11,761 nucleotides of DNA, taken from the IMG/VR virus record IMGVR_UViG_2617271050_000004; one strand, 5' to 3'. The notes under the pieces were generated by a model. It searched no databases. It was given only the letters and a program-made list of their open reading frames with translations, and was not told the origin of the DNA. Origin of the DNA: a virus. Its lineage: Duplodnaviria; Heunggongvirae; Uroviricota; Caudoviricetes. Shown one piece after another: positions 1 to 11,761 of this stretch. The translations under genes and the position numbers were made by a program. The first letter of the stretch is position 1. Every line of letters starts with the position of its first letter.

Positions 1-258
1 ATGCAAACCGTTATTTTTGGTCGTTCGGGTTGCCCTTACTGTGTGCGTGCAAAAGATCTGGCTGAGAAATTGAGCAATGAACGCGATGATTTTCAGTATC
101 AGTATGTAGATATTCGTGCGGAAGGGATCACTAAAGAAGATCTACAACAAAAGGCAGGTAAACCCGTAGAAACCGTGCCGCAGATTTTTGTCGATCAGCA
201 ACATATCGGCGGCTATACCGATTTTGCTGCATGGGTGAAAGAAAATCTGGACGCCTGA
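1..258 (+). CDS. grxA: glutaredoxin 1 (85 aa)
   Basis: Complete ORF from ATG at 1 to TGA at 256-258. The translation carries the CPYC redox motif (GRSGCPYCVRAK) and reads as E. coli glutaredoxin 1 from memory. A hairpin follows immediately downstream. Confidence 0.93.
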   Translation: MQTVIFGRSGCPYCVRAKDLAEKLSNERDDFQYQYVDIRAEGITKEDLQQKAGKPVETVPQIFVDQQHIGGYTDFAAWVKENLDA

Positions 259-267
259 TCGTCTGAC

Positions 268-300
268 AAGCCCTCGCGTTGAGGGCTTTACTGATTTTTT
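268..300. terminator. Candidate bidirectional intrinsic terminator between convergent grxA and ybjM
   Basis: Inverted repeat AAGCCCTC (268-275), loop GCGTT, GAGGGCTT (281-288), followed by a T-rich tract ending TTTTTT (295-300). It sits between the grxA stop (258) and the ybjM stop (288-290). Confidence 0.4.
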
Positions 301-665
301 CTGTGCTGTGGTTTAAACAAACTACTGATAAATAAGAAACACAGTGCCCCCAGCGCACACCAGAACACCGCGCTTAGTAACCATGCCAGCTCTTGCCAGA
401 ATGAGCGCGTCGGTGAAAAAAACAGCCGCATAATGAGCATCGAACAGGGTGCCGCCAGCATTGCGCCAAACAGAGGTTTCAGGACTTCTCTACGCTGTGA
501 AAAGAAGCTGGCGACTGCTCCAGGAAGAATGAAAAATAGCAAGCCGATTTCAGGATGCCCGGCAGCCCGAAAAGCGCCTTTCATGTGCGTCGCCAGAAAA
601 AGGCACACCACAATGAAGAGGACAAAACAGCAGATTGCCCCCGCCCAACGTTGTTTATGTTTCAC
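288..665 (-). CDS. ybjM: small inner-membrane protein YbjM (125 aa)
   Basis: 125-aa minus-strand ORF, strongly hydrophobic with several predicted transmembrane stretches. It is convergent with grxA and divergent from ybjL, as in the E. coli K-12 arrangement recalled from memory. Confidence 0.8.
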   Translation of the reverse strand: MKHKQRWAGAICCFVLFIVVCLFLATHMKGAFRAAGHPEIGLLFFILPGAVASFFSQRREVLKPLFGAMLAAPCSMLIMRLFFSPTRSFWQELAWLLSAVFWCALGALCFLFISSLFKPQHRKNQ

Positions 666-934
666 TCGTTCCTCCTGACACTGCGTCTATCGAACACATT
701 TTTCGCCAGTGTGGCGTTCAGTAAGATAAAGCCGCTTCGCATTCCATGCTAATATAGGCCAACGCAATTCATATAGCCGTTGATACCTAATGTGATTACA
801 CTAGTAAAATATATTGTTACTTTACTATCGTTTAGGTGCGCTGAATGAATCTGCGCCCTGAATTCTGGTAAAAAACATTATCGTAAATTACCATTTCTTT
901 CAACAGCTTACTAGTAAACAAGAAGTTAGCCTCC

Positions 935-2620
935 GTGAATATAAACGTCGCCGAATTGTTAAATGGGAATTACATTCTGTTATTATTTGTGGTCCTCGCG
1001 CTTGGGCTATGTCTCGGAAAGTTACGACTTGGTTCGATCCAACTGGGTAATTCCATTGGCGTTTTAGTCGTATCGCTGTTATTAGGCCAACAACATTTCA
1101 GCATTAACACCGATGCGCTTAATCTTGGCTTTATGCTGTTTATTTTCTGCGTCGGGGTCGAAGCCGGACCGAACTTTTTTTCCATTTTTTTTCGCGATGG
1201 GAAAAATTACCTAATGTTAGCACTGGTGATGGTAGGCAGTGCGCTGGTCATCGCCTTAGGGTTAGGTAAGCTGTTTGGCTGGGATATTGGCCTGACGGCC
1301 GGTATGTTAGCAGGCTCTATGACGTCGACACCGGTTCTGGTCGGTGCTGGCGATACACTGCGTCATTCCGGCATGGAAAGCAGGCAGCTCTCACTGGCAC
1401 TGGATAATCTGAGCCTCGGGTATGCCTTAACCTATTTAATCGGTCTGGTGAGTTTGATTGTTGGTGCGCGTTACTTGCCGAAATTGCAGCATCAGGACTT
1501 ACAGACCAGCGCCCAGCAAATCGCCCGCGAACGTGGCCTGGACACTGATGCCAACCGTAAGGTTTATTTACCGGTGATCCGCGCCTATCGCGTCGGCCCG
1601 GAACTGGTGGCCTGGACCGACGGCAAAAATCTGCGTGAACTGGGTATTTATCGACAAACCGGCTGCTACATTGAACGTATTCGACGTAACGGGATTCTGG
1701 CAAATCCAGACGGTGATGCCGTGCTACAAATGGGCGATGAAATAGCGTTGGTAGGCTATCCCGACGCCCATGCCCGACTCGATCCCAGCTTCCGTAACGG
1801 TAAAGAAGTTTTCGATCGTGACCTTCTCGACATGCGTATCGTCACTGAAGAAGTGGTCGTTAAAAACCATAACGCTGTAGGTAAACGTCTCGCACAACTG
1901 AAGTTGACCGATCACGGTTGCTTCCTTAACCGCGTCATTCGTAGCCAGATTGAGATGCCGATAGATGACAACGTCGTGCTTAACAAAGGTGACGTTTTAC
2001 AAGTCAGCGGCGATGCCCGCCGCGTAAAAACCATCGCCGATCGCATCGGCTTTATCTCGATTCACAGCCAGGTCACTGACCTGCTGGCATTCTGCGCCTT
2101 CTTTGTTATTGGGCTGATGATCGGGATGATCACCTTCCAGTTCAGCACATTCAGTTTCGGCATGGGGAACGCTGCCGGGTTGTTATTCGCCGGAATTATG
2201 CTGGGCTTTATGCGTGCTAACCACCCGACCTTCGGTTACATTCCGCAGGGTGCATTAAGCATGGTGAAAGAGTTCGGCTTGATGGTGTTTATGGCAGGCG
2301 TTGGTCTGAGCGCCGGTAGCGGTATTAATAACGGCCTGGGCGCGATTGGCGGTCAGATGTTGATTGCCGGATTGATTGTCAGTCTGGTGCCCGTGGTTAT
2401 CTGTTTCTTGTTCGGTGCTTATGTATTGCGAATGAACCGCGCGCTGTTGTTCGGCGCAATGATGGGCGCACGTACCTGCGCGCCGGCAATGGAGATCATC
2501 AGTGATACAGCTCGCAGTAACATCCCGGCGCTGGGCTATGCGGGCACCTATGCAATCGCCAACGTCCTGCTGACGCTGGCAGGGACAATCATCGTCATGG
2601 TATGGCCAGGATTAGGATAA
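935..2620 (+). CDS. ybjL: putative AAE-family transporter YbjL (561 aa)
   Basis: 561-aa ORF with a GTG start at 935 (MNINVAELL...). It has hydrophobic N- and C-terminal membrane domains around a central soluble region, the architecture of YbjL/YidE-type aspartate:alanine-exchanger family proteins. Length and sequence match E. coli YbjL from memory. Confidence 0.88.
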
Positions 2621-2731
2621 AACTGAAGTTGCCCTGAAAATGAAATTTTTTTGCACAACCGCAGAACTTTTCCGCAGGGCATCAGTCTTAATTAGTGCCA
2701 CTGCTTTTCTTTGATGTCCCCATTTTGTGGA

Positions 2732-2775
2732 GCCCATCAACCCCGCCATTTCGGTTCAAGGTTGATGGGTTTTTT
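2732..2775 (+). terminator. Candidate rho-independent terminator downstream of ybjL
   Basis: Perfect 10-bp inverted repeat CCCATCAACC (2733-2742) and GGTTGATGGG (2760-2769) with a 17-nt loop that can form a further CCG/CGG sub-stem, followed directly by TTTTTT (2770-2775). Confidence 0.5.
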
Positions 2776-2855
2776 GTTGCCTGAAATTTAAGCTATTTAA
2801 AATCATGATGTTAGAAGCACTATTTTTTAACGATGGCGACAAAATGGCGGCAGCG

Positions 2856-3074
2856 TCAAAGAGAGAGCGCCACCTGTCCTGATTTCATTGGATGCGGCTG
2901 AACCGGATTTGACTCTTTTGGCGTTGCAATCGAACGAACAAAAGTTTCATGGGTAACAAAAGTATGGCTGCAGTTAATGTTCTGGCACTGGTTGTAACGC
3001 TCTTTGGTCAATGAAGATACCTGAAAACTGCTGCGAGTATGGGCGGCACTTCCACACAGTGGGCAAATCATCAT
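2856..3074 (-). CDS. ogr: Ogr/Delta-family zinc-finger late-gene transcription activator (about 72 aa)
   Basis: Translation MICPLCGSAAHTRSS...ERYNQCQNINCSHTF has the C-x2-C...C-x4-C zinc-finger pattern of P2 Ogr. I place the start at ATG 3072-3074 rather than the upstream GTG at 3107, because GGGGAGA lies about 9 nt upstream of that ATG and the resulting length matches Ogr. It is the last gene of the tail block, as in P2. Confidence 0.85.
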   Translation of the reverse strand: MMICPLCGSAAHTRSSFQVSSLTKERYNQCQNINCSHTFVTHETFVRSIATPKESNPVQPHPMKSGQVALSL

Positions 3075-3164
3075 TTTTCGAGTTCTCCCCATTTTTGCTA
3101 AATTCACAATAATGATACCGCATTATTCCATTTTGCAAACTTAAAAGTTCTCCATTGCGAAGAA

Positions 3165-4265
3165 TCATTCCATTTCGAAATCATCAATCCTCACTTCAAG
3201 CTCCAGACTGGTTGTAAAACCGTTATCGGGGCTGACGGTATGCGTCAGAGTCGTAATGGTCCATTCCGCATCATCTATCGGCTGTTTAAAGCCACTGACT
3301 TTCACTGGCATTTCCGTGTAGAGATCTGCCCGACCTTCTGCCAGTAGTAGCGAGAATGACGCAACGCCGCGTTGCAGGCGTTCCCACTGCATTTTCGCCG
3401 CCCGTTCGGCGTTGCTCCGGTTGGCATAAGTGCGATTAAGTACCAGCACGTTTTCATCCGTACCCACCAGGTAATCGCCCTGCTTCGCTTCCGGCTCTTT
3501 CTTCTGCTTCTTAGTCCTGCGCTTACGCTTCACCGTGGTGCTTTCTTTCTTCGCGGGTTCGCGGGTATGCAACCAGCTGGCAATTACGCCCGTGTAGGCT
3601 CCGCGATCTGCCAGGGTAAAGCGGTGACTGTCGCCGTCCTTACGTGTGATAGTGATAACCGGTAGTGGTTTACCGCTGGCGCTTTTACCCTGTCCCTGCC
3701 GGATGAATAACAGATTGCCATTTTTCACCGACGCAATAGCACCGTACTGGCGCGCCAGCCGCATCAGAAAACTGCCGTCACTCTCATTGGTCTGGTCTAT
3801 ATGCTCCACGGGTTTATCCGACAGGTCTTCACCCAATGCCATCTTCAGTTTGTGCCGCGCAGATATTTCCTTCACCACTTCCCCAACGGTGGTCTTGTGC
3901 CACGATTTTTCACGGCGGGTATTCAGCGTTTCACGAAAATCAGCACTTCGCGCCCGGATAGTCAGGCGGTCCGGTGCGCCAGTGTGTTCAATCTCGTCCA
4001 CCGTGAATGCCCCTTTCGGGAAAAGCGGCTGCCCCTTCCACCCCAGCGCCAGCGTAATGACCGCACCACGGCGCGGCAGCACGATTTTTCCGTCGGCGTC
4101 GTCCAGCTCCAGATCAAGCTGGTCCGCTTCAAATCCCCGATTGTCCGTCAGCGTCAGACTCATCAGGCGGTTATCCAGCACAGTAGTGATATCCCTGCCC
4201 TCAATACTGATGCTGAATGCGGGAGTTTTGTTGCCTTTGTTAAGCAGTTCAGAGCTGAAATTCAC
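3165..4265 (-). CDS. D: tail protein D (late control gene D family, 366 aa)
   Basis: Translation recognised as P2 gpD family. Position between U and ogr matches P2 order. The start overlaps the U stop by 4 nt. Confidence 0.88.
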   Translation of the reverse strand: MNFSSELLNKGNKTPAFSISIEGRDITTVLDNRLMSLTLTDNRGFEADQLDLELDDADGKIVLPRRGAVITLALGWKGQPLFPKGAFTVDEIEHTGAPDRLTIRARSADFRETLNTRREKSWHKTTVGEVVKEISARHKLKMALGEDLSDKPVEHIDQTNESDGSFLMRLARQYGAIASVKNGNLLFIRQGQGKSASGKPLPVITITRKDGDSHRFTLADRGAYTGVIASWLHTREPAKKESTTVKRKRRTKKQKKEPEAKQGDYLVGTDENVLVLNRTYANRSNAERAAKMQWERLQRGVASFSLLLAEGRADLYTEMPVKVSGFKQPIDDAEWTITTLTHTVSPDNGFTTSLELEVRIDDFEME

Positions 4266-4747
4266 GACAGCAGCCCTCCCACCGTTTTACTGATATCGCT
4301 TAATGCAGACGTTGCCGTGTCCTGCAGATTATTCAGTTGAGTACTGAGATCACCGAACATATCGGACAGGGATTCATCCACCCGTTTTAGCGAAAGGGTG
4401 AACTCAATCCTGCGCGGCATACCGTCGCGGAAAAACTCCGTTTTAGTCTGATTCAGTCCCTCAATCACATACATGCCGTAAATCGTGCCGCTGCCTTCAA
4501 TCAGGGGCCATGCTTTCCCCTGTTCTGCCATCTGCTCCAGTGCCAGCAACGACAGCCTGCCGCCTGTTATTTCCGGCATAAGAACACCGGAAAGCGTCAG
4601 CATGTCGTTTTCCGGTCCCAGAAACTGCGTGGACGGACGTCGGTTTACCCGACTGTTTGCCGCATGTCGCCAGCTGCGTTGATACTGCAGTTCCTGATAC
4701 GGAACGGTGCGCAGCATAAACACGTACAATCCCAGCACCATCATCAT
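4262..4747 (-). CDS. U: tail protein U (161 aa)
   Basis: Size and position between T and D match P2 gpU. Four-nt overlaps with both neighbours indicate translational coupling. Confidence 0.82.
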   Translation of the reverse strand: MMMVLGLYVFMLRTVPYQELQYQRSWRHAANSRVNRRPSTQFLGPENDMLTLSGVLMPEITGGRLSLLALEQMAEQGKAWPLIEGSGTIYGMYVIEGLNQTKTEFFRDGMPRRIEFTLSLKRVDESLSDMFGDLSTQLNNLQDTATSALSDISKTVGGLLS

Positions 4748-7700
4748 GCGTCGTATCCCCCCTGATCGCTGTAGTTACTCCTGGCTTTTGCCTTCAGCCT
4801 GCGTTCACGTTCATCAAGCTGGCGTGCCACCTCCCGCGCAATATCCTGCGCACTTTGTCCTGGCTGCGTCTGAATGATGATCTGCGTCGGTGCCTCAATC
4901 CGTTGAACGAGCGGCACAGTGGCTGCGCGACTCACAATTGCTTCTCCACCTTTCGCGGGAAGTGCCAAAGGGTGCAATGGTGGAAGCTCTGCTGGCGCGG
5001 CAGCAACGCCCATCATTCCGGCAACAACGGCAGCCAGTGCAGCTGTATTTCTCCGGCTGGTCACATTTGCCGGGCCGTTAACAATTTCCGGCCCGTTTTC
5101 ACCGACGATGCCAAACTGCCCGCGCGGGATATACCCGCCGCTGTCATACATCCCCGCAAAGCCATATCCCCATGATGGAAAACCACCCGATGGCATCATC
5201 ACTTTACCGTCTGCATTCACCGTCGCAGGTTGCTGACGCGTCACGCTTTCCGGCAGTTTTGCCTTTGCGGCCTCTTTACTGACAATGCCGAGCTTCTCCA
5301 GCAACCAGGAAACGCCGGATTTCAGGGAGTCCAGCGGATGCATGACCATATTCAGCCCTTCCGCCAGTGCCTCCCCGAATCGCCGCCCCATTGCCGCTGC
5401 GCTCTGCAGTTCGGCAGAGGTCGACTTAACGGGCGTCAGCAGATCAGTAAACCAGCCCCACAGCGCCTGCACTTTGTCGCCAATCCACTGGAACACGGGC
5501 TTAAGCGGTTCGAACGCTGCACTGATGGGACCTGCCGCCGCTTTGAATCCTTCCACCACGCCACCGAGAAATGCGGTGATGGGTTGCCAGTATTTCCAGA
5601 CAACCAGCGCCACGCCCGCCAGTGCAGTAACCACAAGACCTATCGGACTGAGCAGAGCACCTAACAGACCAGATATGGCATACAGGGCAACGCGCAGCAT
5701 CGCCAGTGGACCAGATGCCAGTACTCGCAGCACCGTGCCTGCGGCGGCCAGTCCACCGCGCAGTACCGCCAGAGGATTCATAAACATCACAGCAACAGCA
5801 CGTAAACCGGATAATCCAGACCGCAAAAGTGCAACCGGCGCACCTGCTACAGTTTTCAGGACATTTCCCGTCAGTGATGCCGTGCGGCGCAAAGACGACA
5901 ACGGCGCAGTAAGTAAACCTGCGGCGTTGCCCGATGAAGCAAGCCCGCGTCGCAGCAGTGCCAGTGGCGCGCCAGCCAGCCAGGACAACGCGCTGCTGGT
6001 TCGAGTTACTGCTGCCGTAACGGAAGATAACGTTTTGATACCCAACACAGAGAATCCCAGACGGATCACTGCTAGCGGCCCCAGCACTGCAGCCAGCGCC
6101 ACCGCTAAGGTGCCGAGGCCGACGGTAACCGCAGCCACAACAGCCGATGCTTTCATCAGTGTGCCTGTCAGTTCCGGGTTAGCTTCCACCCAGCGACGCA
6201 ACGCCCCCGTGACGCTTTTCACCGTGTACAGAATATCCATCAGCGGCTGGCGCAGCGTTTCGCCCAGGCTGCTGAAGGTGTTCTGCGCTCCGGTTTTGAC
6301 CAGCAACCACTGCGCAGAAAGTGAATCCTTGTTAATGTCGGATTCTTTCTGCATGGAGCCGAGCGCATCATTGCCCGCTGTCAGTTTTAACTGACGCTGC
6401 AGTTCCGGCAGGTTGTTTGCCAGTTTCGCCGCGTCATCGCCAAACTCTTTACCAAACAACATAGTCATGGCAGACAGGCGCTTGTCCTGCGGCAGCGCGT
6501 TTACCTTCTCCAGCACGCGCTGGATGGTTCCCATCGCATCCTTCGTCATCTGCTTTTCAATCACTTCAGGATTGAGTTTCAGCAGATTCATCCCTTCAAA
6601 GAAACTCTTGCTTTGCATGGTGGCAATGGACAATTCACGCACCATCGCGTTTGCTGCACTGGCTGCAACCTCTGGCGCAGCGCCCAGTGTCAGGAAGGTG
6701 GAACCCAGCGCCGCCGCTTTACGATAATCCAGACGGTCAGCCACACCGCCCAGACGTTGCATCACATCAATGATGTCTGCCCCTTTCGACATGGCGTTAT
6801 CATCCAGATAGTTCAGCGCATCACCGAGCTGTTCAATATTGCGGGTGGGGATTTTGTAGAGCTGGGCGATTTTCCCCAGACTTTCTGACAGTTCATCCGC
6901 TGGCAGCTCAAAGGCTGTTGCCGCCTTTGCTGCCGTACTGGCGAAGGCCAGCAGGTCACGTTTCTGATCTTCCCAGCTGTCGTCAGGGTTTGCGACGTTC
7001 ATGCGCGCACCACCTTCAACCAGTGCAGCGAAGTCCACCGCACCGTTTTCCATCGGCAACTGTTCGCTGGCAGCCTTGATGGCATCCTGCATTTCATAAA
7101 AACGTGCAGTGCGGTTGCCATTATCGTCACGCAGACCATTGACCTGCTTTGCCACACCTTTCATGGCATCTTCCATGCTGGTATAGCTTTTTACTGCCGC
7201 CATCACTGGCGCACCCATTGCCAGCCCTGCAGCCGTGGTGGTGGCTCCGGCACCTGCAATACGATCACGCACCTCCAGCGAACGGGCATAACTGGCACGC
7301 GCCGCATTCATCCTGCGCTGAGCTTCACCCAGTCGCTTCAGCCGCGCCTCCTGTTTCGAAAGCTCCTGGTTATAACGTGATGTTTCACGGGCTAAACGGG
7401 CAGTTGCTCCTGCATCGTCTTTCGCAGAAATTCCCGCCCGGTACAGTTCAGCACGCACAAGCGCCGTCTGCTGCTGCAGCTTTTTCTGGCGTTCTTCCAG
7501 GCGCTGAACAGCCAGCCGTTGACGGCCCAGAGCAACAACCTGACGTTGCGAAGGCGGCCCCATCGCTCCCAGTTCCTGACTGAGCAAATTTGCACGCTGG
7601 CGGGCATAGTTCAGCCTGTCGCCTAATTTCTGATTTTCTGCCTGCAGCTTTCGGAAGCTGTCCAGACTGCTCCCGGCCTGATCAAGCTGCTTTATTGCAT

Positions 7701-7821
7701 CGCGGGATTTTTTGACAGCAGCAGCCAGTTCTCTTGAACTGGCCTGTGCAGATCGAAATGGGCGGGTGAGCTTGTCAACCGCATTAAGAATGACCTGCAG
7801 ACGCAGGTTGTTATCACTCAT
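4744..7821 (-). CDS. T: tail tape measure protein T (1025 aa)
   Basis: Long ORF with a charged, coiled-coil-like N-terminal third, a hydrophobic Ala/Leu/Gly-rich middle with degenerate short repeats (APLALLRRGL, APVALLRSGL, NPLAVLRGGL, GPLAMLRVAL) and a Gly-rich C-terminus. This is typical tape measure architecture, and the gene lies immediately after E/E' as in P2. Confidence 0.9.
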   Translation of the reverse strand: MSDNNLRLQVILNAVDKLTRPFRSAQASSRELAAAVKKSRDAIKQLDQAGSSLDSFRKLQAENQKLGDRLNYARQRANLLSQELGAMGPPSQRQVVALGRQRLAVQRLEERQKKLQQQTALVRAELYRAGISAKDDAGATARLARETSRYNQELSKQEARLKRLGEAQRRMNAARASYARSLEVRDRIAGAGATTTAAGLAMGAPVMAAVKSYTSMEDAMKGVAKQVNGLRDDNGNRTARFYEMQDAIKAASEQLPMENGAVDFAALVEGGARMNVANPDDSWEDQKRDLLAFASTAAKAATAFELPADELSESLGKIAQLYKIPTRNIEQLGDALNYLDDNAMSKGADIIDVMQRLGGVADRLDYRKAAALGSTFLTLGAAPEVAASAANAMVRELSIATMQSKSFFEGMNLLKLNPEVIEKQMTKDAMGTIQRVLEKVNALPQDKRLSAMTMLFGKEFGDDAAKLANNLPELQRQLKLTAGNDALGSMQKESDINKDSLSAQWLLVKTGAQNTFSSLGETLRQPLMDILYTVKSVTGALRRWVEANPELTGTLMKASAVVAAVTVGLGTLAVALAAVLGPLAVIRLGFSVLGIKTLSSVTAAVTRTSSALSWLAGAPLALLRRGLASSGNAAGLLTAPLSSLRRTASLTGNVLKTVAGAPVALLRSGLSGLRAVAVMFMNPLAVLRGGLAAAGTVLRVLASGPLAMLRVALYAISGLLGALLSPIGLVVTALAGVALVVWKYWQPITAFLGGVVEGFKAAAGPISAAFEPLKPVFQWIGDKVQALWGWFTDLLTPVKSTSAELQSAAAMGRRFGEALAEGLNMVMHPLDSLKSGVSWLLEKLGIVSKEAAKAKLPESVTRQQPATVNADGKVMMPSGGFPSWGYGFAGMYDSGGYIPRGQFGIVGENGPEIVNGPANVTSRRNTAALAAVVAGMMGVAAAPAELPPLHPLALPAKGGEAIVSRAATVPLVQRIEAPTQIIIQTQPGQSAQDIAREVARQLDERERRLKAKARSNYSDQGGYDA

Positions 7822-8250
7822 CGTTGGCCCCGCTTCTCTGAATCGCTTTATACCGCCATTCCAGCACTTCGGTCAGCGGCATAACGTCAGTAACGGATGG
7901 CGGCCAGTGAAAAATGGTGGCGATATCTGCCACCAGATCGTCAACCGTCAGGCTGTCGGCAAACCGGCAAGCACCGACTTCTTCAACAAAAAAGTGACAA
8001 CCTCAACCGACATGGCAGTGAGATCTGCCGGGTCCATCTCTGCAATTTCCTGTGCAGTCAGTGCCGGACTGGAGATGCGGGGGATCACGGTCATCATCGC
8101 GTTTACATCCATATCCATAATGGCCTGCAGGCGTGTACCGCGCAGCGCACCGGACTGCGGTTTACGCAGCACAATTTCGGTGATTTCTGTTTTACCGCGC
8201 TTGATGGGGGTATCCAGTTGAATGGTCTTTTCAGTCTGCTTATCGCTCAT
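7814..8250 (-). CDS. E+E': tail assembly chaperone E+E' (about 145 aa), made by programmed -1 ribosomal frameshift at 7987-7993
   Basis: On the minus strand the zero-frame codons ACT TTT TTG form the heptamer T_TTT_TTG. After a -1 slip the reading frame stays open for 57 codons (VEEVGACRFADSLTVDDLVADIATIFHWPPSVTDVMPLTEVLEWRYKAIQRSGANDE) and ends at TGA 7814-7816, overlapping the T start codon (7819-7821). I translated this by hand from the sequence. Confidence 0.75.
7948..8250 (-). CDS. E: tail assembly chaperone E (100 aa, zero-frame product)
   Basis: Small ORF between FII and T, the position of P2 gene E. It contains the slippery heptamer near its 3' end. Confidence 0.82.
   Translation of the reverse strand: MSDKQTEKTIQLDTPIKRGKTEITEIVLRKPQSGALRGTRLQAIMDMDVNAMMTVIPRISSPALTAQEIAEMDPADLTAMSVEVVTFLLKKSVLAGLPTA
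7987..7993 (-). other. Programmed -1 frameshift slippery heptamer TTTTTTG (plus strand CAAAAAA)
   Basis: Exact X_XXY_YYZ heptamer in the E zero frame. It sits where the E/E' (lambda G/GT-like) frameshift is expected, about 87 codons into E. Confidence 0.75.
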
Positions 8251-8304
8251 TTTGCTGTCCTGTCAATTGGGTTCTGGCGCGGTATCCCGCGCCGTTCAGA
8301 TATA

Positions 8305-8820
8305 TCAGAGGCCGAGGGCGTTGCGGTGCGCTTCCATCAGGTCCACACCGTCCACAATTTCCACCATGTTGATAAGGTCCACTTCATAGAGCACCTCACC
8401 ATTGATGGTCAGCTTCGCGTAGCTGTTGGTACTGGTCACTTTGGTGGTGTTGCTTTCGCCCGTCTTCCACTCGCCGGAATCCACTTCTTTGTGACGTCCA
8501 CGCACGACAAGCTCCACGGCCTGCACTTCCCCGGTATCGTCACGCTGAATAGAGCCGGTAAAGCGCAGCTGGATGCCATCCACCGTGGCTTTACCCATCT
8601 GTTTAAACAGCAGCAATTCAGTACCACCAATGGAAAATTCTGTGTCCAGCGCACTGTCATCAAGCCCCAGGTCCACATCCACCGCACCCGGCATTCCGCC
8701 GCCGCGATACTTCTCATATTTGCGGGTAAATTTCGGCAGCGTCAGCGACTCAACGATCCCCTGCCAGTTGTTCCCGTCGTTAAACAGGTTCAGGTGTTTT
8801 AATTTGCGTGGTAAAGCCAT
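8305..8820 (-). CDS. FII: tail tube protein FII (171 aa)
   Basis: Translation MALPRKLKHLNLFNDG... recognised as P2 FII family. It lies immediately downstream of FI with a 9-nt spacer. Confidence 0.9.
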   Translation of the reverse strand: MALPRKLKHLNLFNDGNNWQGIVESLTLPKFTRKYEKYRGGGMPGAVDVDLGLDDSALDTEFSIGGTELLLFKQMGKATVDGIQLRFTGSIQRDDTGEVQAVELVVRGRHKEVDSGEWKTGESNTTKVTSTNSYAKLTINGEVLYEVDLINMVEIVDGVDLMEAHRNALGL

Positions 8821-8829
8821 GTTGTCCCC

Positions 8830-10002
8830 TTACGCGCTGACCTGGCTGGCGAAATTCACCAGGTACTGATCGGTGATGCGCTGACGCAGCATCAGGTTTT
8901 CAAGTGGCGGCACTGGCGTGTAGTCGTAGTCGATGGTGAGTTTTCCGGCTTTCAGCGTGTCTTTGTCGTTCACCGACTCATCCAGCCAGCAATCACCACC
9001 AATGAGATAGCCCTGACTGACCAGGCTGCGCATTTTGGCGCGGATACCTTCGATAATGTCGCGGGCCAGCGACGGGTTAAGCGGTTTATCCACCGCCCAC
9101 AGGTGTGCTTCTGCCATCGTGTCCATCAGCACCTGCGCCGTGCGGGTGTAGTTTTCGAAGGCAAAGAGCGGGTCATCACTCAGGCAGCGGGAACCCCAGA
9201 AGCGGAAACCGTCTTTACGCACAAGCGTGGTGACGTCGTTCTGGTTCAGCAGACCTGCATCGGTTGCCGGGTCCTGCAGATCCCAGAACACATCTGCAGA
9301 AATTCCGGTGACACCGTTCACGCCCACGTTGGACAGGCTTTTGTGCCATCCGGTCTGCTCGTCAATTTTGGCGCGCAGACCAAGCGCACGGGCGGTGGCA
9401 TATGCCGTTGCTTCGGCATTCAGCACCGTGTCCCAGCCAGTAAAGTCAGGCCAGATCAGCATCCCTTCGCGCTGGCTGAAGTTTTCGCGGTAAGTGATCG
9501 CCTCCTGCACTGTCTTGCAGCCATACGCTGACAGGTAAGCAAATCCACGCAGGCTTTGCGCCACGCTTAGCAACTCAGTAGCTACCGCCTTGGTGTCGTG
9601 GCCTGGCACGCCGAGAATGCGCGGTTTAACGCCGAGCTGTGACTGGGCAGATAACAGGGCTTTCATACCTGTTTTTTTACCTTCAGCAGTCACTGCGCCG
9701 ATGATATTGGTCGTGGTTTCGTCTTCCGTTTCACCCTGCGGCACACGCACAACAATGGTCACGGGTTTTGCCTGGTCAGCGATGGCATCCAGCGAACGGG
9801 CCAGAGTACCTGACTCACCCGCTTTACCGCTGGCAGTCAGCACATCAGTGATCAGCACGGGTTTATTAAGAGGAAACATTTTTGCATCGGCATCATCGCC
9901 CGTGCAGACCATACCCACGATGGCGGTGCTCACCGTGGTAATGGATCGGGTGCCTTCGTTGACTTCAACAACGCGCACCCCGTGGTGGTAATCCTGAGCC
10001 AT
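8830..10002 (-). CDS. FI: contractile tail sheath protein FI (390 aa)
   Basis: Translation [34 protein letters not shown]... is closely similar to P2 FI from memory. A strong RBS (AGGAGG) lies about 9 nt upstream of ATG 10000-10002. Confidence 0.92.
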
Positions 10003-10078
10003 AGTGGCGAACCTCCTGATTGGATTAGGCTTCGCCCTATGTTGAAGTGATTGTGCCTGACAAACAGCTAAGCGCAGT

Positions 10079-10096
10079 TGTACCGTTATTCACACA
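10079..10096 (-). promoter_or_regulatory. Candidate Ogr-dependent P2-type late promoter activator site (TGT-N12-ACA) for the FI operon
   Basis: Palindromic TGT-N12-ACA element centred at 10087/10088, about 85 nt upstream of the FI start codon. This fits an activator site centred near -55 with a roughly 30-nt leader. No good -35 is present, as expected for an activator-dependent promoter. Confidence 0.4.
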
Positions 10097-10144
10097 AAAT
10101 GACGGTATTTGTCTGCTTTCAGGGATAATCAAAATAAAGCTGAT

Positions 10145-10711
10145 TCAGGGAGATTTATTGCTCTTATTTGCCGGAAATTTTCGATAAATGGTAGAAACGC
10201 CTACATCAAAAATCAGTGCAATACGCTGTCTTGATTCTCCGGCCTCGAGTAAACGCCCAATCTGTGCCCACTGTTCGCTGGTCAACTTAGGACGGCGTCC
10301 ACCTACTCTGCCCTTAGCACGAGCTGCAGCCAGCCCCGCCCTGGTACGTTCAACTATCAGTTCGCGTTCCATTTCAGCCAGGGCACCCATGACATGAAAA
10401 AAGAAACGGCCCATTGGGGTGCTGGTATCAATACTGTCAGTCAGGCTTCGGAAATTCACGCCACGCTGGCGCAGCTCTTCTATCAGCGTAACAAGATGCC
10501 GCATACTGCGCCCCAGTCTGTCCAGCTTCCAGACAACCAGCGTGTCTCCTGCCGATAGTGTCCTGAGCAGCTTTTTCAGCCCCGGTCTGTCTGACTTGGT
10601 GCCACTGATTTTATCCTCAAAAATCCGCTCACATCCCGCACAGTTCAGTGCATTGCGTTGCAAATCGGTGTTCTGGTCATTTGTTGACACGCGTACATAG
10701 CCAATAAGCAT
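10145..10711 (-). CDS. serine-recombinase DNA invertase (Gin/Hin/Pin/Cin family, about 188 aa)
   Basis: N-terminus MLIGYVRVSTNDQNTDLQRNAL... with the catalytic serine context VRVSTxxQ, and a C-terminal helix-turn-helix (VGVSTIYRKF). It is near-identical in pattern to the e14 Pin and Mu Gin invertases. I place the start at the second ATG (10709-10711) because GGGGGA lies about 5 nt upstream; the ORF track starts 6 nt earlier. Confidence 0.9.
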   Translation of the reverse strand: MLIGYVRVSTNDQNTDLQRNALNCAGCERIFEDKISGTKSDRPGLKKLLRTLSAGDTLVVWKLDRLGRSMRHLVTLIEELRQRGVNFRSLTDSIDTSTPMGRFFFHVMGALAEMERELIVERTRAGLAAARAKGRVGGRRPKLTSEQWAQIGRLLEAGESRQRIALIFDVGVSTIYRKFPANKSNKSP

Positions 10712-10738
10712 GATCATCCCCCTGAATAAAAACCGGAA

Positions 10739-11290
10739 ATGATGCCAGTTAGCCGTTATCTCTGCATTTTCATAAACGTTGGTTTAGGAGAAGGCTCAGC
10801 ATTGCCTGTTGGCGTACCTGTTCCGTGGCCCTCAGCCACTCCGCCAACAGGCTGGCTAAAATGCAACGGAGCAGCTTTTTCTGCTGAAGAATACCCAGAA
10901 CTGGCAAAGGCTTACCCGACAAATAAATTGCCTGATTTACGTGGTGAGTTTATTCGTGGCTGGGATGACGGACGTGGTATGGATACGGGGAGGGCAATAT
11001 TATCAGCTCAGGGCGATGCCATACGTAATATCTATGGTGAGTTCAAGACTGTAAACACCGAAAATTATTCAATATGGGAATCAGTAGGCTCGTTTAAGGG
11101 GGCAGTGGTGCCTTTGAATCCATCAACGAACAATAGTTATTTCTCCTTAATCAGAAGTATGGTGACTGAAAGAACAGATGGCGCTGTTTACCCAAAAGTG
11201 ATTGGCCTTGATGCTTCAAGAATTGTTCCAACTGCAAACGAAAACCGTCCTCGTAACATTGCCTTTAATTATATCGTGAGAGCTGCCTGA
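10739..11290 (+). CDS. tail-fibre C-terminal variable cassette (alternative, currently unfused orientation)
   Basis: The ORF starts in or at the crossover site and reads into the segment. The translation (GVPVPWPSATPPTGWLKCNGAAFSAEEYPELAKAYPTNKLPDLRGEFIRGWDDGRGMD...) resembles the receptor-binding C-terminal part of phage tail fibres (Mu S/S', P1 S, P2 H). There is no convincing RBS and no N-terminal constant part on this strand. Its stop overlaps the start of the downstream assembly gene (TGATG). Confidence 0.7.
   Translation: MMPVSRYLCIFINVGLGEGSALPVGVPVPWPSATPPTGWLKCNGAAFSAEEYPELAKAYPTNKLPDLRGEFIRGWDDGRGMDTGRAILSAQGDAIRNIYGEFKTVNTENYSIWESVGSFKGAVVPLNPSTNNSYFSLIRSMVTERTDGAVYPKVIGLDASRIVPTANENRPRNIAFNYIVRAA
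10767..10792. promoter_or_regulatory. Candidate 26-bp invertase crossover site (gix/hix-like) bounding the invertible tail-fibre segment
   Basis: TTTTCATAAACG-TT-GGTTTAGGAGAA: two imperfect 12-bp inverted half-sites around a 2-bp core, with the AAAC..GGTTT centre typical of gix/hix sites (about 9 of 12 matches per half-site to TTATCAAAAACC as recalled). It lies 56 bp from the invertase start, inside the 5' end of the tail-fibre cassette ORF. Confidence 0.45.
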
Positions 11291-11554
11291 TGAATAAAGC
11301 CGTATTAAATAACGAACTCATTGCCATAAAAGCGGGAGACATTACCATTTATAATTATGATGGTGAAACGCGGGAATATATTTCCACATCAACTGAATAT
11401 CTTGCGGTTGGCGTCGGTATCCCGGCATGTTCTTGTTTAGATGCACCAGTTACACATAAAGCTGGTTATGCAATCTGCCGATCTGCAGATTTTAACTCAT
11501 GGGAATGTGTGCCAGACCATCGCGGTGAAATCGTCTTTAGCACCGAAACAGGAN
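11290..11554 (+). CDS. tail-fibre assembly protein (Tfa/U'-like), N-terminal part, truncated by the assembly gap
   Basis: Translation MNKAVLNNELIAIKAGDITIYNYDGETREYI... has the look of Tfa N-terminal domains and is start/stop-coupled to the preceding tail-fibre cassette. The ORF runs into the N-run at 11555. Confidence 0.65.
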
Positions 11555-11564
11555 NNNNNNNNNG
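11555..11564. other. Assembly gap (10 N)
   Basis: A run of ten n characters. Coding frames on the two sides are incompatible, so the true gap is larger than 10 bp or the join is artificial. Confidence 0.95.
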
Positions 11565-11761
11565 GCGTTAAGTCGGGTTGTTTCTGCCTGCGTCAGTTTA
11601 CGTGCGGCCTGCAATTTCAGCTGAATCAGACTGATGGAAGCCATTGCAGCATCAATCAGTGACTGACGCTGTGCTTCTGCCGCGTCTACTGCGGCATTAT
11701 GCTGTGCCTCAGTATCTGTCACCCATTTCTCACCATCCCATTTATCGTATGGCGTTAACGG
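11565..11761 (-). CDS. tail-fibre assembly protein (Tfa/U-like), C-proximal fragment; N-terminus lies beyond the window end, C-terminus is lost in the gap
   Basis: The minus-strand frame is open from the window edge: PLTPYDKWDGEKWVTDTEAQHNAAVDAAEAQRQSLIDAAMASISLIQLKLQAARKLTQAETTRLNA. This matches the conserved C-terminal region of lambda/e14-type Tfa proteins from memory. It is convergent with the plus-strand tfa, as in Mu G or P1 C invertible segments. Confidence 0.65.

Follow-up and report, generated by a model that had tools for sequence, protein, structure and literature searches.

The locus considered here is an ordinary Gin/Pin-type invertible tail-fibre segment, carried by a very common E. 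coli P2-like prophage beside ybjL. The feature that had drawn attention to it, a run of N's within a tail-fibre assembly (tfa) gene, is a property of the assembly record, and the underlying biology is already well known. Judging from comparison with related sequences, the piece of DNA to the right of the run is most likely part of the same chaperone gene that begins to the left of it, inverted in the scaffold, and not a second gene. In all relatives, the piece once flipped falls within the same gene, while the layout given by the scaffold is rare and the sequence near the gap is a patchwork of alleles. About 57 bp would be hidden if the piece is to be flipped; should a rare inverted copy be real, the figure would be about 0.2-0.4 kb. 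The features of the window (i.e., the whole stretch of 11,761 nucleotides that was analyzed) are as follows.

1-2620: grxA, ybjM, and ybjL, host genes
after 2620, minus strand: right end of the P2-like prophage, with ogr, D, U, tape measure, E, tail assembly protein, tube, and sheath
10145-10717, minus strand: serine DNA invertase of the Gin/Pin/Hin type (Pfam Resolvase, PF00239, 2.4e-53, and HTH_7, PF02796, 5.8e-16)
10739-11290, plus strand: silent alternative tail-fibre C-terminal cassette (Sv'-like), an ORF of 183 aa (Pfam Collar, 8.1e-16)
10767-10792: left, invertase-proximal 26-bp crossover site, TTTTCATAAACGTTGGTTTAGGAGAA, the sole such site in the window
11290-11553, plus strand: codons 1-88 of a TfaE-type tail-fibre assembly gene (200 codons), with nt 1-191 identical to L001
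11481-11553, plus strand: last 73 nt of the left contig
11554-11563: run of exactly 10 N, the only N-run of the window, a placeholder for a scaffold join and no measured gap
11564-11761, minus strand: terminal piece, codons 108-173 of a TfaE-type Tfa (Caudo_TAP, PF02413, 4.7e-12, positions 39-105 of 131)
11290-11571, plus strand: artefactual ORF through the N-run, with XXXX residues
11441-11662, plus strand: artefactual ORF through the N-run, with XXXX residues
11537-11722, minus strand: artefactual ORF through the N-run, with XXXX residues

The window aligns collinearly to the chromosome of E. coli LD26-1 (NZ_CP047665.1). Within window 4100-11480 (7381 nt) there are only 3 mismatches relative to L001/E. 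coli LD26-1, and there are none relative to E. coli LD26-1 within the prophage portion of window 1-5413. The same prophage is present at the same ybjL-adjacent site in thousands of assemblies. The segment occupies the stretch of a P2-type tail module that runs from the sheath gene to gene H. The first base of the window coincides with the start of the grxA ATG, and its last base (11761) lies in the middle of a gene, at a codon that is not a start, so windows are apparently cut at gene boundaries, and 11761 would be the end of the scaffold. The right piece, then, would be a contig of about 198 nt.

The invertase is 190 aa long as a mechanical ORF, while relatives annotate a protein of 188 aa (equivalent to window 10145-10711), which in L001 and L002 is called 'recombinase family protein'. 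In a scan of the window for the crossover motif, where 0.01 chance matches are expected, only the site adjacent to the invertase was found. Its inverted partner would lie beyond the end of the window; it is present in L001, L032-L036, L039, and L040. In L001, the closest complete relative, the left site is at 6668-6693, and the partner, at 8536-8561, lies within the tail-fibre gene. A search for inverted repeats within window 10000-11761 found none; the crossover sites of L001 are likewise missed by a repeat search with seeds of 9 and are found only by means of the degenerate motif.

The window contains one cassette, consisting of the Collar-domain Sv' region (10739-11290) plus tfa. Its partner is seen in relatives alone, where it consists of a gp53-like C-terminus and a Tfa of 131-147 aa. 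In the opposite orientation, the Sv' cassette would be fused at the crossover site to the constant part of gene H. A Collar cassette is indeed fused to H in L031, L032, and L035, and Sv' is silent in L001 and L036, so that both orientations of the segment occur among relatives and complete genomes. The identical Sv' protein occurs at 10 other places, followed in each by a Tfa of 192-202 aa.

Invertible cassettes of tail-fibre genes are known from the G segment of phage Mu (Gin), the C segment of P1 (Cin), and the P segment of e14 (PinE). The locus can be placed in the Gin/Pin/Hin/Cin class by the domains of its invertase, by the crossover consensus, by cassettes that face each other in relatives, and by the fact that genomes with either orientation exist. 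As in the known systems, the gene encoding a serine invertase adjoins the segment, the crossover sites (the right one known from relatives) have 26 bp and conform to TTNTCNNAAACNNNGGTTTNNGANAA, a fibre C-terminus and a tfa gene make up each of two alternative cassettes, which face each other (the second known from relatives), and the silent cassette reads away from the invertase. Unlike them, the segment is set within a P2-like tail module, only its invertase-proximal half is in the window, and a scaffold gap interrupts its tfa. The closest named phages, Escherichia phage 500465-1, Cartapus, and Klebsiella phage KP12, carry sheath and invertase regions that are 96-98% identical to those of the window up to the crossover site. 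Their similarity ends at window 10793, i.e., at the crossover site, as expected if cassettes have been exchanged, and the cassettes beyond differ. The invertible layout is also treated in PMC4272514, which describes a P2-like prophage locus of EPEC with three inverted repeats, more complex than the close relatives considered here. A multi-site, shufflon-like segment such as that one was entertained for the present locus and rejected: the window has one crossover motif and relatives have two.

The gap itself is much as the initial annotation described it. Counting gives exactly the 10 N reported, at 11554-11563, preceded by exactly the 88 codons of plus-strand tfa that had been estimated, and the ORF at 11441-11662, together with the two other ORFs containing XXXX residues, was rightly dismissed, as all three read through the N-run. 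(The number 10 is not divisible by three, and any ORF spanning the run therefore joins unrelated frames.) It also holds that 10 bp is too little to complete what flanks the run on either side; the join must be a placeholder, and some sequence is absent. The location of the gap in the centre of the invertible segment stands as an approximation, provided that the segment resembles that of L001: there the segment is 1894 bp long, with its centre at 7614.5, and the gap maps to 7455, about 160 bp to the left. Some assemblers, SPAdes and Velvet among them, may insert 10 N as a minimal or artificial gap. In one MAG assembled with a SPAdes-based method, a run of 10 N resisted closure (PMC8535929), and elsewhere 10 N were used to concatenate scaffolds (PMC9894930). 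A literal gap of 10 bp, marking a real deletion-inversion junction, was considered as well and found no support; the plus frame stops directly after the N-run.

The part of tfa to the left of the gap gives no Pfam match by itself at E<=0.01 over its 88 aa. It is, however, 97% identical at the DNA level to the tfa gene of L001, whose full-length product carries PF28596 and PF02413. The resemblance is uneven. Up to nt 191, the two genes are the same, while the last 73 nt before the gap differ from L001 at 7 positions (about 10%) and from another tfa allele type (L003, L015, L016, L018, L019) at only 1. A substitution at 11507 (Tyr73Cys) is unique, found in none of the relatives. All of the alleles that share tfa nt 1-191 with the window differ from it at nt 192.

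The piece to the right of the gap, 11564-11761, when translated on the minus strand in frame from its last base, gives PLTPYDKWDGEKW...TRLNA (PLTPYDKW...TRLNA). It aligns to codons 108-173 of the 200-codon genes of relatives and stops 27 codons short of their end. The initial annotation had read it as a minus-strand tfa about 30 codons short of its C-terminus. The minus-strand reading and the shortfall are borne out (27 codons are missing), but not the view that it represents a separate convergent gene. In L001 and L002, the two closest genomes, the only match of the piece is to tfa nt 322-519, in reverse-complement orientation, within the same plus-strand gene to which the left part belongs. 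The left part ends at tfa nt 264, leaving 57 nt (19 codons) between it and the flipped piece, with the frame preserved in both L001 and L002. The same relation (same gene, same strand, 57 nt downstream) holds wherever the identical Sv' protein is encoded (10 loci), as it does in 14 viral contigs, these last found through exact matches to parts of the right piece. When the piece is flipped and joined to the left part through 57 nt taken from a relative, the result is an intact 200-codon ORF of the TfaE type, without a stop codon.

Two synthetic queries, one consisting of the left part plus the piece as scaffolded and the other with the piece flipped, were compared against 5426 complete E. coli genomes, with coverage of at least 80% required. 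The flipped query found matches in 982 of them, and 15 of the 15 matches listed span 519 bp (264+57+198). The query as scaffolded found matches in 2 of the 5426 (with identities of 93% and 84.5%), in both of which tfa is pseudogenised. When the query was a convergent pair (the piece followed by its own reverse complement), only 1 of the 2319 genomes carrying the piece was found to have it. In short, the notion of two different convergent tfa genes, on which the initial annotation was built, runs up against the flipped, same-gene layout, which was seen in 982 genomes, at 12 close loci, and in 14 viral contigs. A convergent partner does exist for the 200-codon gene: in 20 places sharing the Sv' protein or the tape measure, it is a Tfa of 131-147 aa. 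That partner shows about 37% protein similarity to the piece over its last 65 residues and no nucleotide similarity. In comparison with lambda Tfa and E. coli TfaE (Caudo_TAP, PF02413), the reconstructed gene is colinear with TfaE proteins of 200 aa; unlike them, the tfa of the record is split, its middle part is inverted, and 19 codons are absent.

These results are probably best explained by an error of assembly, in which a piece belonging to the same tfa was placed in the wrong orientation. According to this explanation, a short-read assembly would have broken inside the 200-codon gene, whose conserved part encoding Caudo_TAP is present in several prophages per genome. The scaffolder would then have appended, after a placeholder of 10 N and in the wrong orientation, a repeat-derived contig of 198 nt, representing codons 108-173 of the same gene or a consensus collapsed with its paralogues. 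About 57 bp (codons 89-107) would be missing between the two pieces, and the scaffold would stop after the second. The remainder of tfa (its final 27 codons), the short tfa convergent with it, the Sv cassette that is expressed, and the crossover site on the right would presumably be found on other contigs. The exact behavior of the assembler is surmised. The explanation fits every comparative result, and runs of 10 N have been reported as unclosable or as arbitrary spacers (PMC8535929, PMC9894930).

The nature of the piece is also in keeping with a misjoin. It is a repeat, with 3409 occurrences spread over 2319 genomes and as many as 7 in one genome, and it is a patchwork of the sort that a collapsed-repeat consensus would be. 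Among about 3400-3600 E. coli copies, the best match to any natural allele is no greater than 98.0% for the piece and 97.4% for tfa nt 169-519, and among alleles that accompany the same Sv' cassette, the best match to the piece is 96.5%. Greedy decomposition of the piece yields exact stretches of 95, 79, and 24 nt, each matching different alleles or loci. Once the piece is flipped, its far end (tfa nt 322-404), taken together with the last 73 nt of the left contig, corresponds to the allele type of L015, L016, L018, and L019, with 1 mismatch in total, and tfa nt 192-404 has 1 mismatch to L019. The part of the piece proximal to the gap fits yet other alleles. Unlike the TfaE copies in the E. 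coli genomes, the sequence from nt 192 onward is a patchwork that occurs in none of about 3500 of them. Exact-pattern scans with the 53-68 nt before the gap found no match in viral, genome, or metagenome contigs, nor did a scan with the gap-proximal 58 nt of the right piece. Both the source and an identical allele are absent from those collections.

The patchwork flanking the gap is compatible with tfa paralogues having been collapsed or mixed into one consensus at a tangled contig end. It could be, on the other hand, that the mosaic is a genuine new recombinant allele of tfa and no mixed consensus, which counts against the idea of a misjoin. The positions at which the allele switches (tfa nt 169-192) and the contig ends (nt 264) would fit a k of 77, and the exact stretches within the piece measure 95 and 79 nt. 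Such a k-mer signature, drawn from the contig ends, is no more than suggestive, as a simple graph model predicts neither the 57-nt hole nor the boundaries of the piece.

Other considerations weigh against a misjoin. It requires an uncommon error, since paired-end scaffolders seldom misorient contigs, and in an intact 200-codon gene, local read pairs would have backed the plus orientation. A simple de Bruijn-graph model accounts neither for the hole of 57 nt nor for the boundaries at nt 322 and 519. Furthermore, six relatives that are short-read drafts were assembled straight through the region. There must therefore have been something unusual in the source genome, for which a mosaic allele or an extra paralogue would suffice. 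Finally, a real inverted second copy would yield the observed scaffold naturally.

That last alternative deserves attention, though it is unlikely. The orientation of the piece would be real, and the segment would carry on its right side a second, inverted copy of the TfaE-type C-terminal region, either as a convergent tfa of 200 aa or as a rearranged pseudogene resembling a hairpin. Short reads would fail to resolve so long an inverted repeat, about 0.2-0.4 kb would be hidden, and the structure would be essentially that proposed by the initial annotation. Such layouts do exist. An e14-like element with pinE in APEC O78 (L003) has two nearly identical, convergent copies of the 200-codon tfa, the plus copy being a pseudogene, and the distance from the end of the left part to the inverted piece is 384 nt. 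In a P2-like prophage of SWYHX138.33gt (L004), a frameshifted tfa abuts an inverted copy, and the corresponding distance is 208 nt. An inverted repeat would account for both the break and the minus orientation without any error by the scaffolder. In addition, the allele switch at tfa nt 169-192 could be the result of gene conversion from the inverted partner, and the last 73 nt of the left contig match both copies of L003 with 1 mismatch. Perhaps, then, the source strain did carry an inverted second TfaE-type copy within the segment, homogenised by gene conversion from about tfa nt 190, a possibility to which we would give a clear minority of the weight.

The difficulty lies in the rarity of the arrangement. 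With 2 of 5426 complete genomes having the left part plus an inverted piece and 1 of 2319 having the convergent pair, the prior for a real inverted copy is at most 0.2%, and the 20 places with the identical Sv' protein or tape measure all lack the arrangement. Moreover, a plain inverted repeat predicts that the contig would run into a repeat edge in the plus orientation, not that a hole of 57 nt would be followed by a copy in the minus orientation. A real inverted second copy would be an architecture shared with no more than 1-2 of the 5426 complete E. coli genomes.

The same considerations bear on the amount of sequence concealed by the N's. The initial annotation held that at least about 0.4 kb is hidden. 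Two idealised genes of 603 nt that overlap by 29 nt would leave 394 nt concealed, which is the source of the figure, but the calculation is valid only given the rare inverted second copy; with the piece flipped, the figure is 57 bp. The value of 0.4 kb is the right answer to a model whose base rate is about 0.04-0.2%.

The break had also been ascribed to heterogeneity in the orientation of the segment within the sequenced culture, which was held to account for its occurrence exactly at this point. A weaker form of the idea is that heterogeneity caused only the wrong orientation of the piece. We find either form very improbable. Both orientations are represented among complete genomes (L001 and L036 versus L031, L032, and L035), and invertible loci of P2-like prophages are phase-variable in cultures of E. 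coli (EPEC), as has been documented (PMC4272514). However, the interior of the segment inverts as a block, creating alternative joins at the crossover sites only. Whichever state the segment is in, Sv', tfa nt 1-264, and tfa nt 322-519 keep their relative order and orientation. A scan of the window found no motif resembling a crossover site near the gap (11554), and the sequence of the window passes unbroken through the site at 10767-10792.

Two draft genomes with the same prophage and segment serve as positive controls for what heterogeneity does to an assembly. In L033 (GCA_000408685.1) and L040 (GCA_000693895.1), the whole segment is replaced by 1830 and 2055 N, respectively. These N-runs go from crossover site to crossover site, starting 1-12 nt past the site on the side of gene H and ending 1-12 nt before the site on the side of the invertase, and their flanks are mutual reverse complements. 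Here, by contrast, 10 N lie inside tfa. There is one way in which the weaker form might operate. The right piece straddles the centre of the segment (it corresponds to L001 7512-7709, and its mirror image after inversion is 7520-7717, a shift of 8 nt), so that long-insert links to the fixed flank in cells with a flipped segment could favor the minus orientation, a thought that carries little weight. To reach the piece from the fixed flank, inserts would have to exceed 0.84 kb, and local pairs would outvote such links.

Perhaps the join of 10 N is an arbitrary or reference-guided concatenation of contigs made by a downstream pipeline, and the piece comes from the tfa of a different prophage in the same genome. 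Scaffolds have been joined in this way with 10 N (PMC9894930), the piece is multi-copy in many E. coli genomes, and it matches no allele beside the same Sv' cassette at better than 96.5%. Still, it is unlikely that a fragment of tfa would come by chance to lie beside a broken tfa, unless the order was guided by a reference, and the far end of the piece shares a single allele type with the last 73 nt of the left contig (over nt 192-404, 1 mismatch to L019). We regard this account as improbable.

Some care is needed, therefore, in making use of the record. It would be a mistake to annotate its last 198 nt as a convergent tfa gene in its own right, the ORFs crossing the N-run are spurious, and the hidden length cannot be derived by adding up what remains of two genes. 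As a practical rule, heterogeneity of an invertible segment breaks assemblies at crossover sites, and breaks inside tfa point to paralogous Caudo_TAP repeats.

Two draft assemblies carrying the same prophage, both at scaffold level, are interrupted at its invertible segment. In one of them (L033, GCA_000408685.1, 5188-7017) the whole invertible segment is replaced by 1830 N, and in the other (L040, GCA_000693895.1, 4974-7028) 2055 N stand in place of the entire segment. The edges of both N-runs lie 1-12 nt from both crossover sites, the invertase sites that bound the segment, and the flanks are mutually reverse-complementary. Such a gap pattern cleanly marks an invertible segment whose state was ambiguous to the assembly.

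In the window, the run of 10 N (11554-11563) falls within the plus-strand tail-fibre assembly gene (tfa), and divergence rises just to its left: the final 73 nt before the gap (11481-11553) contain 7 mismatches to the closest genome, E. coli LD26-1 (NZ_CP047665.1), vs 3 in the preceding 7381 nt. One of the substitutions, at 11507, changes Tyr73 to Cys, a replacement absent from all of the approximately 1100 E. coli copies compared. Either an error at the contig end or the mixing of paralogues accounts for it.

In relatives, the 3' ends of the two convergent tfa genes, which encode 200 and 139 amino acids, overlap by 29 nt (L001, 7765-7793). Both C-termini carry a conserved LDYIDA...TSxAPD..WP motif, despite which the two genes have no nucleotide similarity. 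A clear convergent pair of two genes of the 200-aa type occurs in just one of 2319 genomes, E. coli APEC O78 (L003, 3993-5162), where an e14-like element with pinE contains near-identical copies facing each other. On the plus strand, the copy is a pseudogene of hybrid make-up, with a 3' end derived from a gene of the 139-aa type, and the pair could itself be an old misassembly.

Similarity of 96-98% to phages 500465-1, Cartapus, and KP12 stops exactly at the crossover site, at 10793 (query position 1964). The cassettes are thus exchanged there as modules.

The left part of the window (1-3107) holds the host flank and the end of the prophage:

from the first nucleotide, which is precisely the A of its ATG: grxA, host gene
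288-665, minus strand: ybjM
935-2620, plus strand: ybjL
2856-3074, minus strand: ogr, at the prophage end, after ybjL

Over positions 1-5413, 18 mismatches separate the window from LD26-1. As all 18 are within host genes (441-2551) and none is in the prophage, the prophage is far more conserved than its host flank.

Some other loci are arranged unusually. In GCA_008728495.1 (L010, 7569-11048), the short-tfa cassette with its gp53-like C-terminus does not lead into tail-fibre gene H; the genes that come next are a second one with Resolvase/HTH_7, one for flagellin, and one with Flag1_repress. These three look like a flagellar phase-variation locus, and the arrangement suggests invertase-mediated recombination between the prophage segment and the flagellin switch. 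In two further loci (L006, 3296-8544; L043, 1780-5264), either two invertase genes or two sheath fragments flank the invertible segment, layouts consistent with inversion between segments of two P2-like prophages; in L006, the first 264 nt of tfa are present twice.
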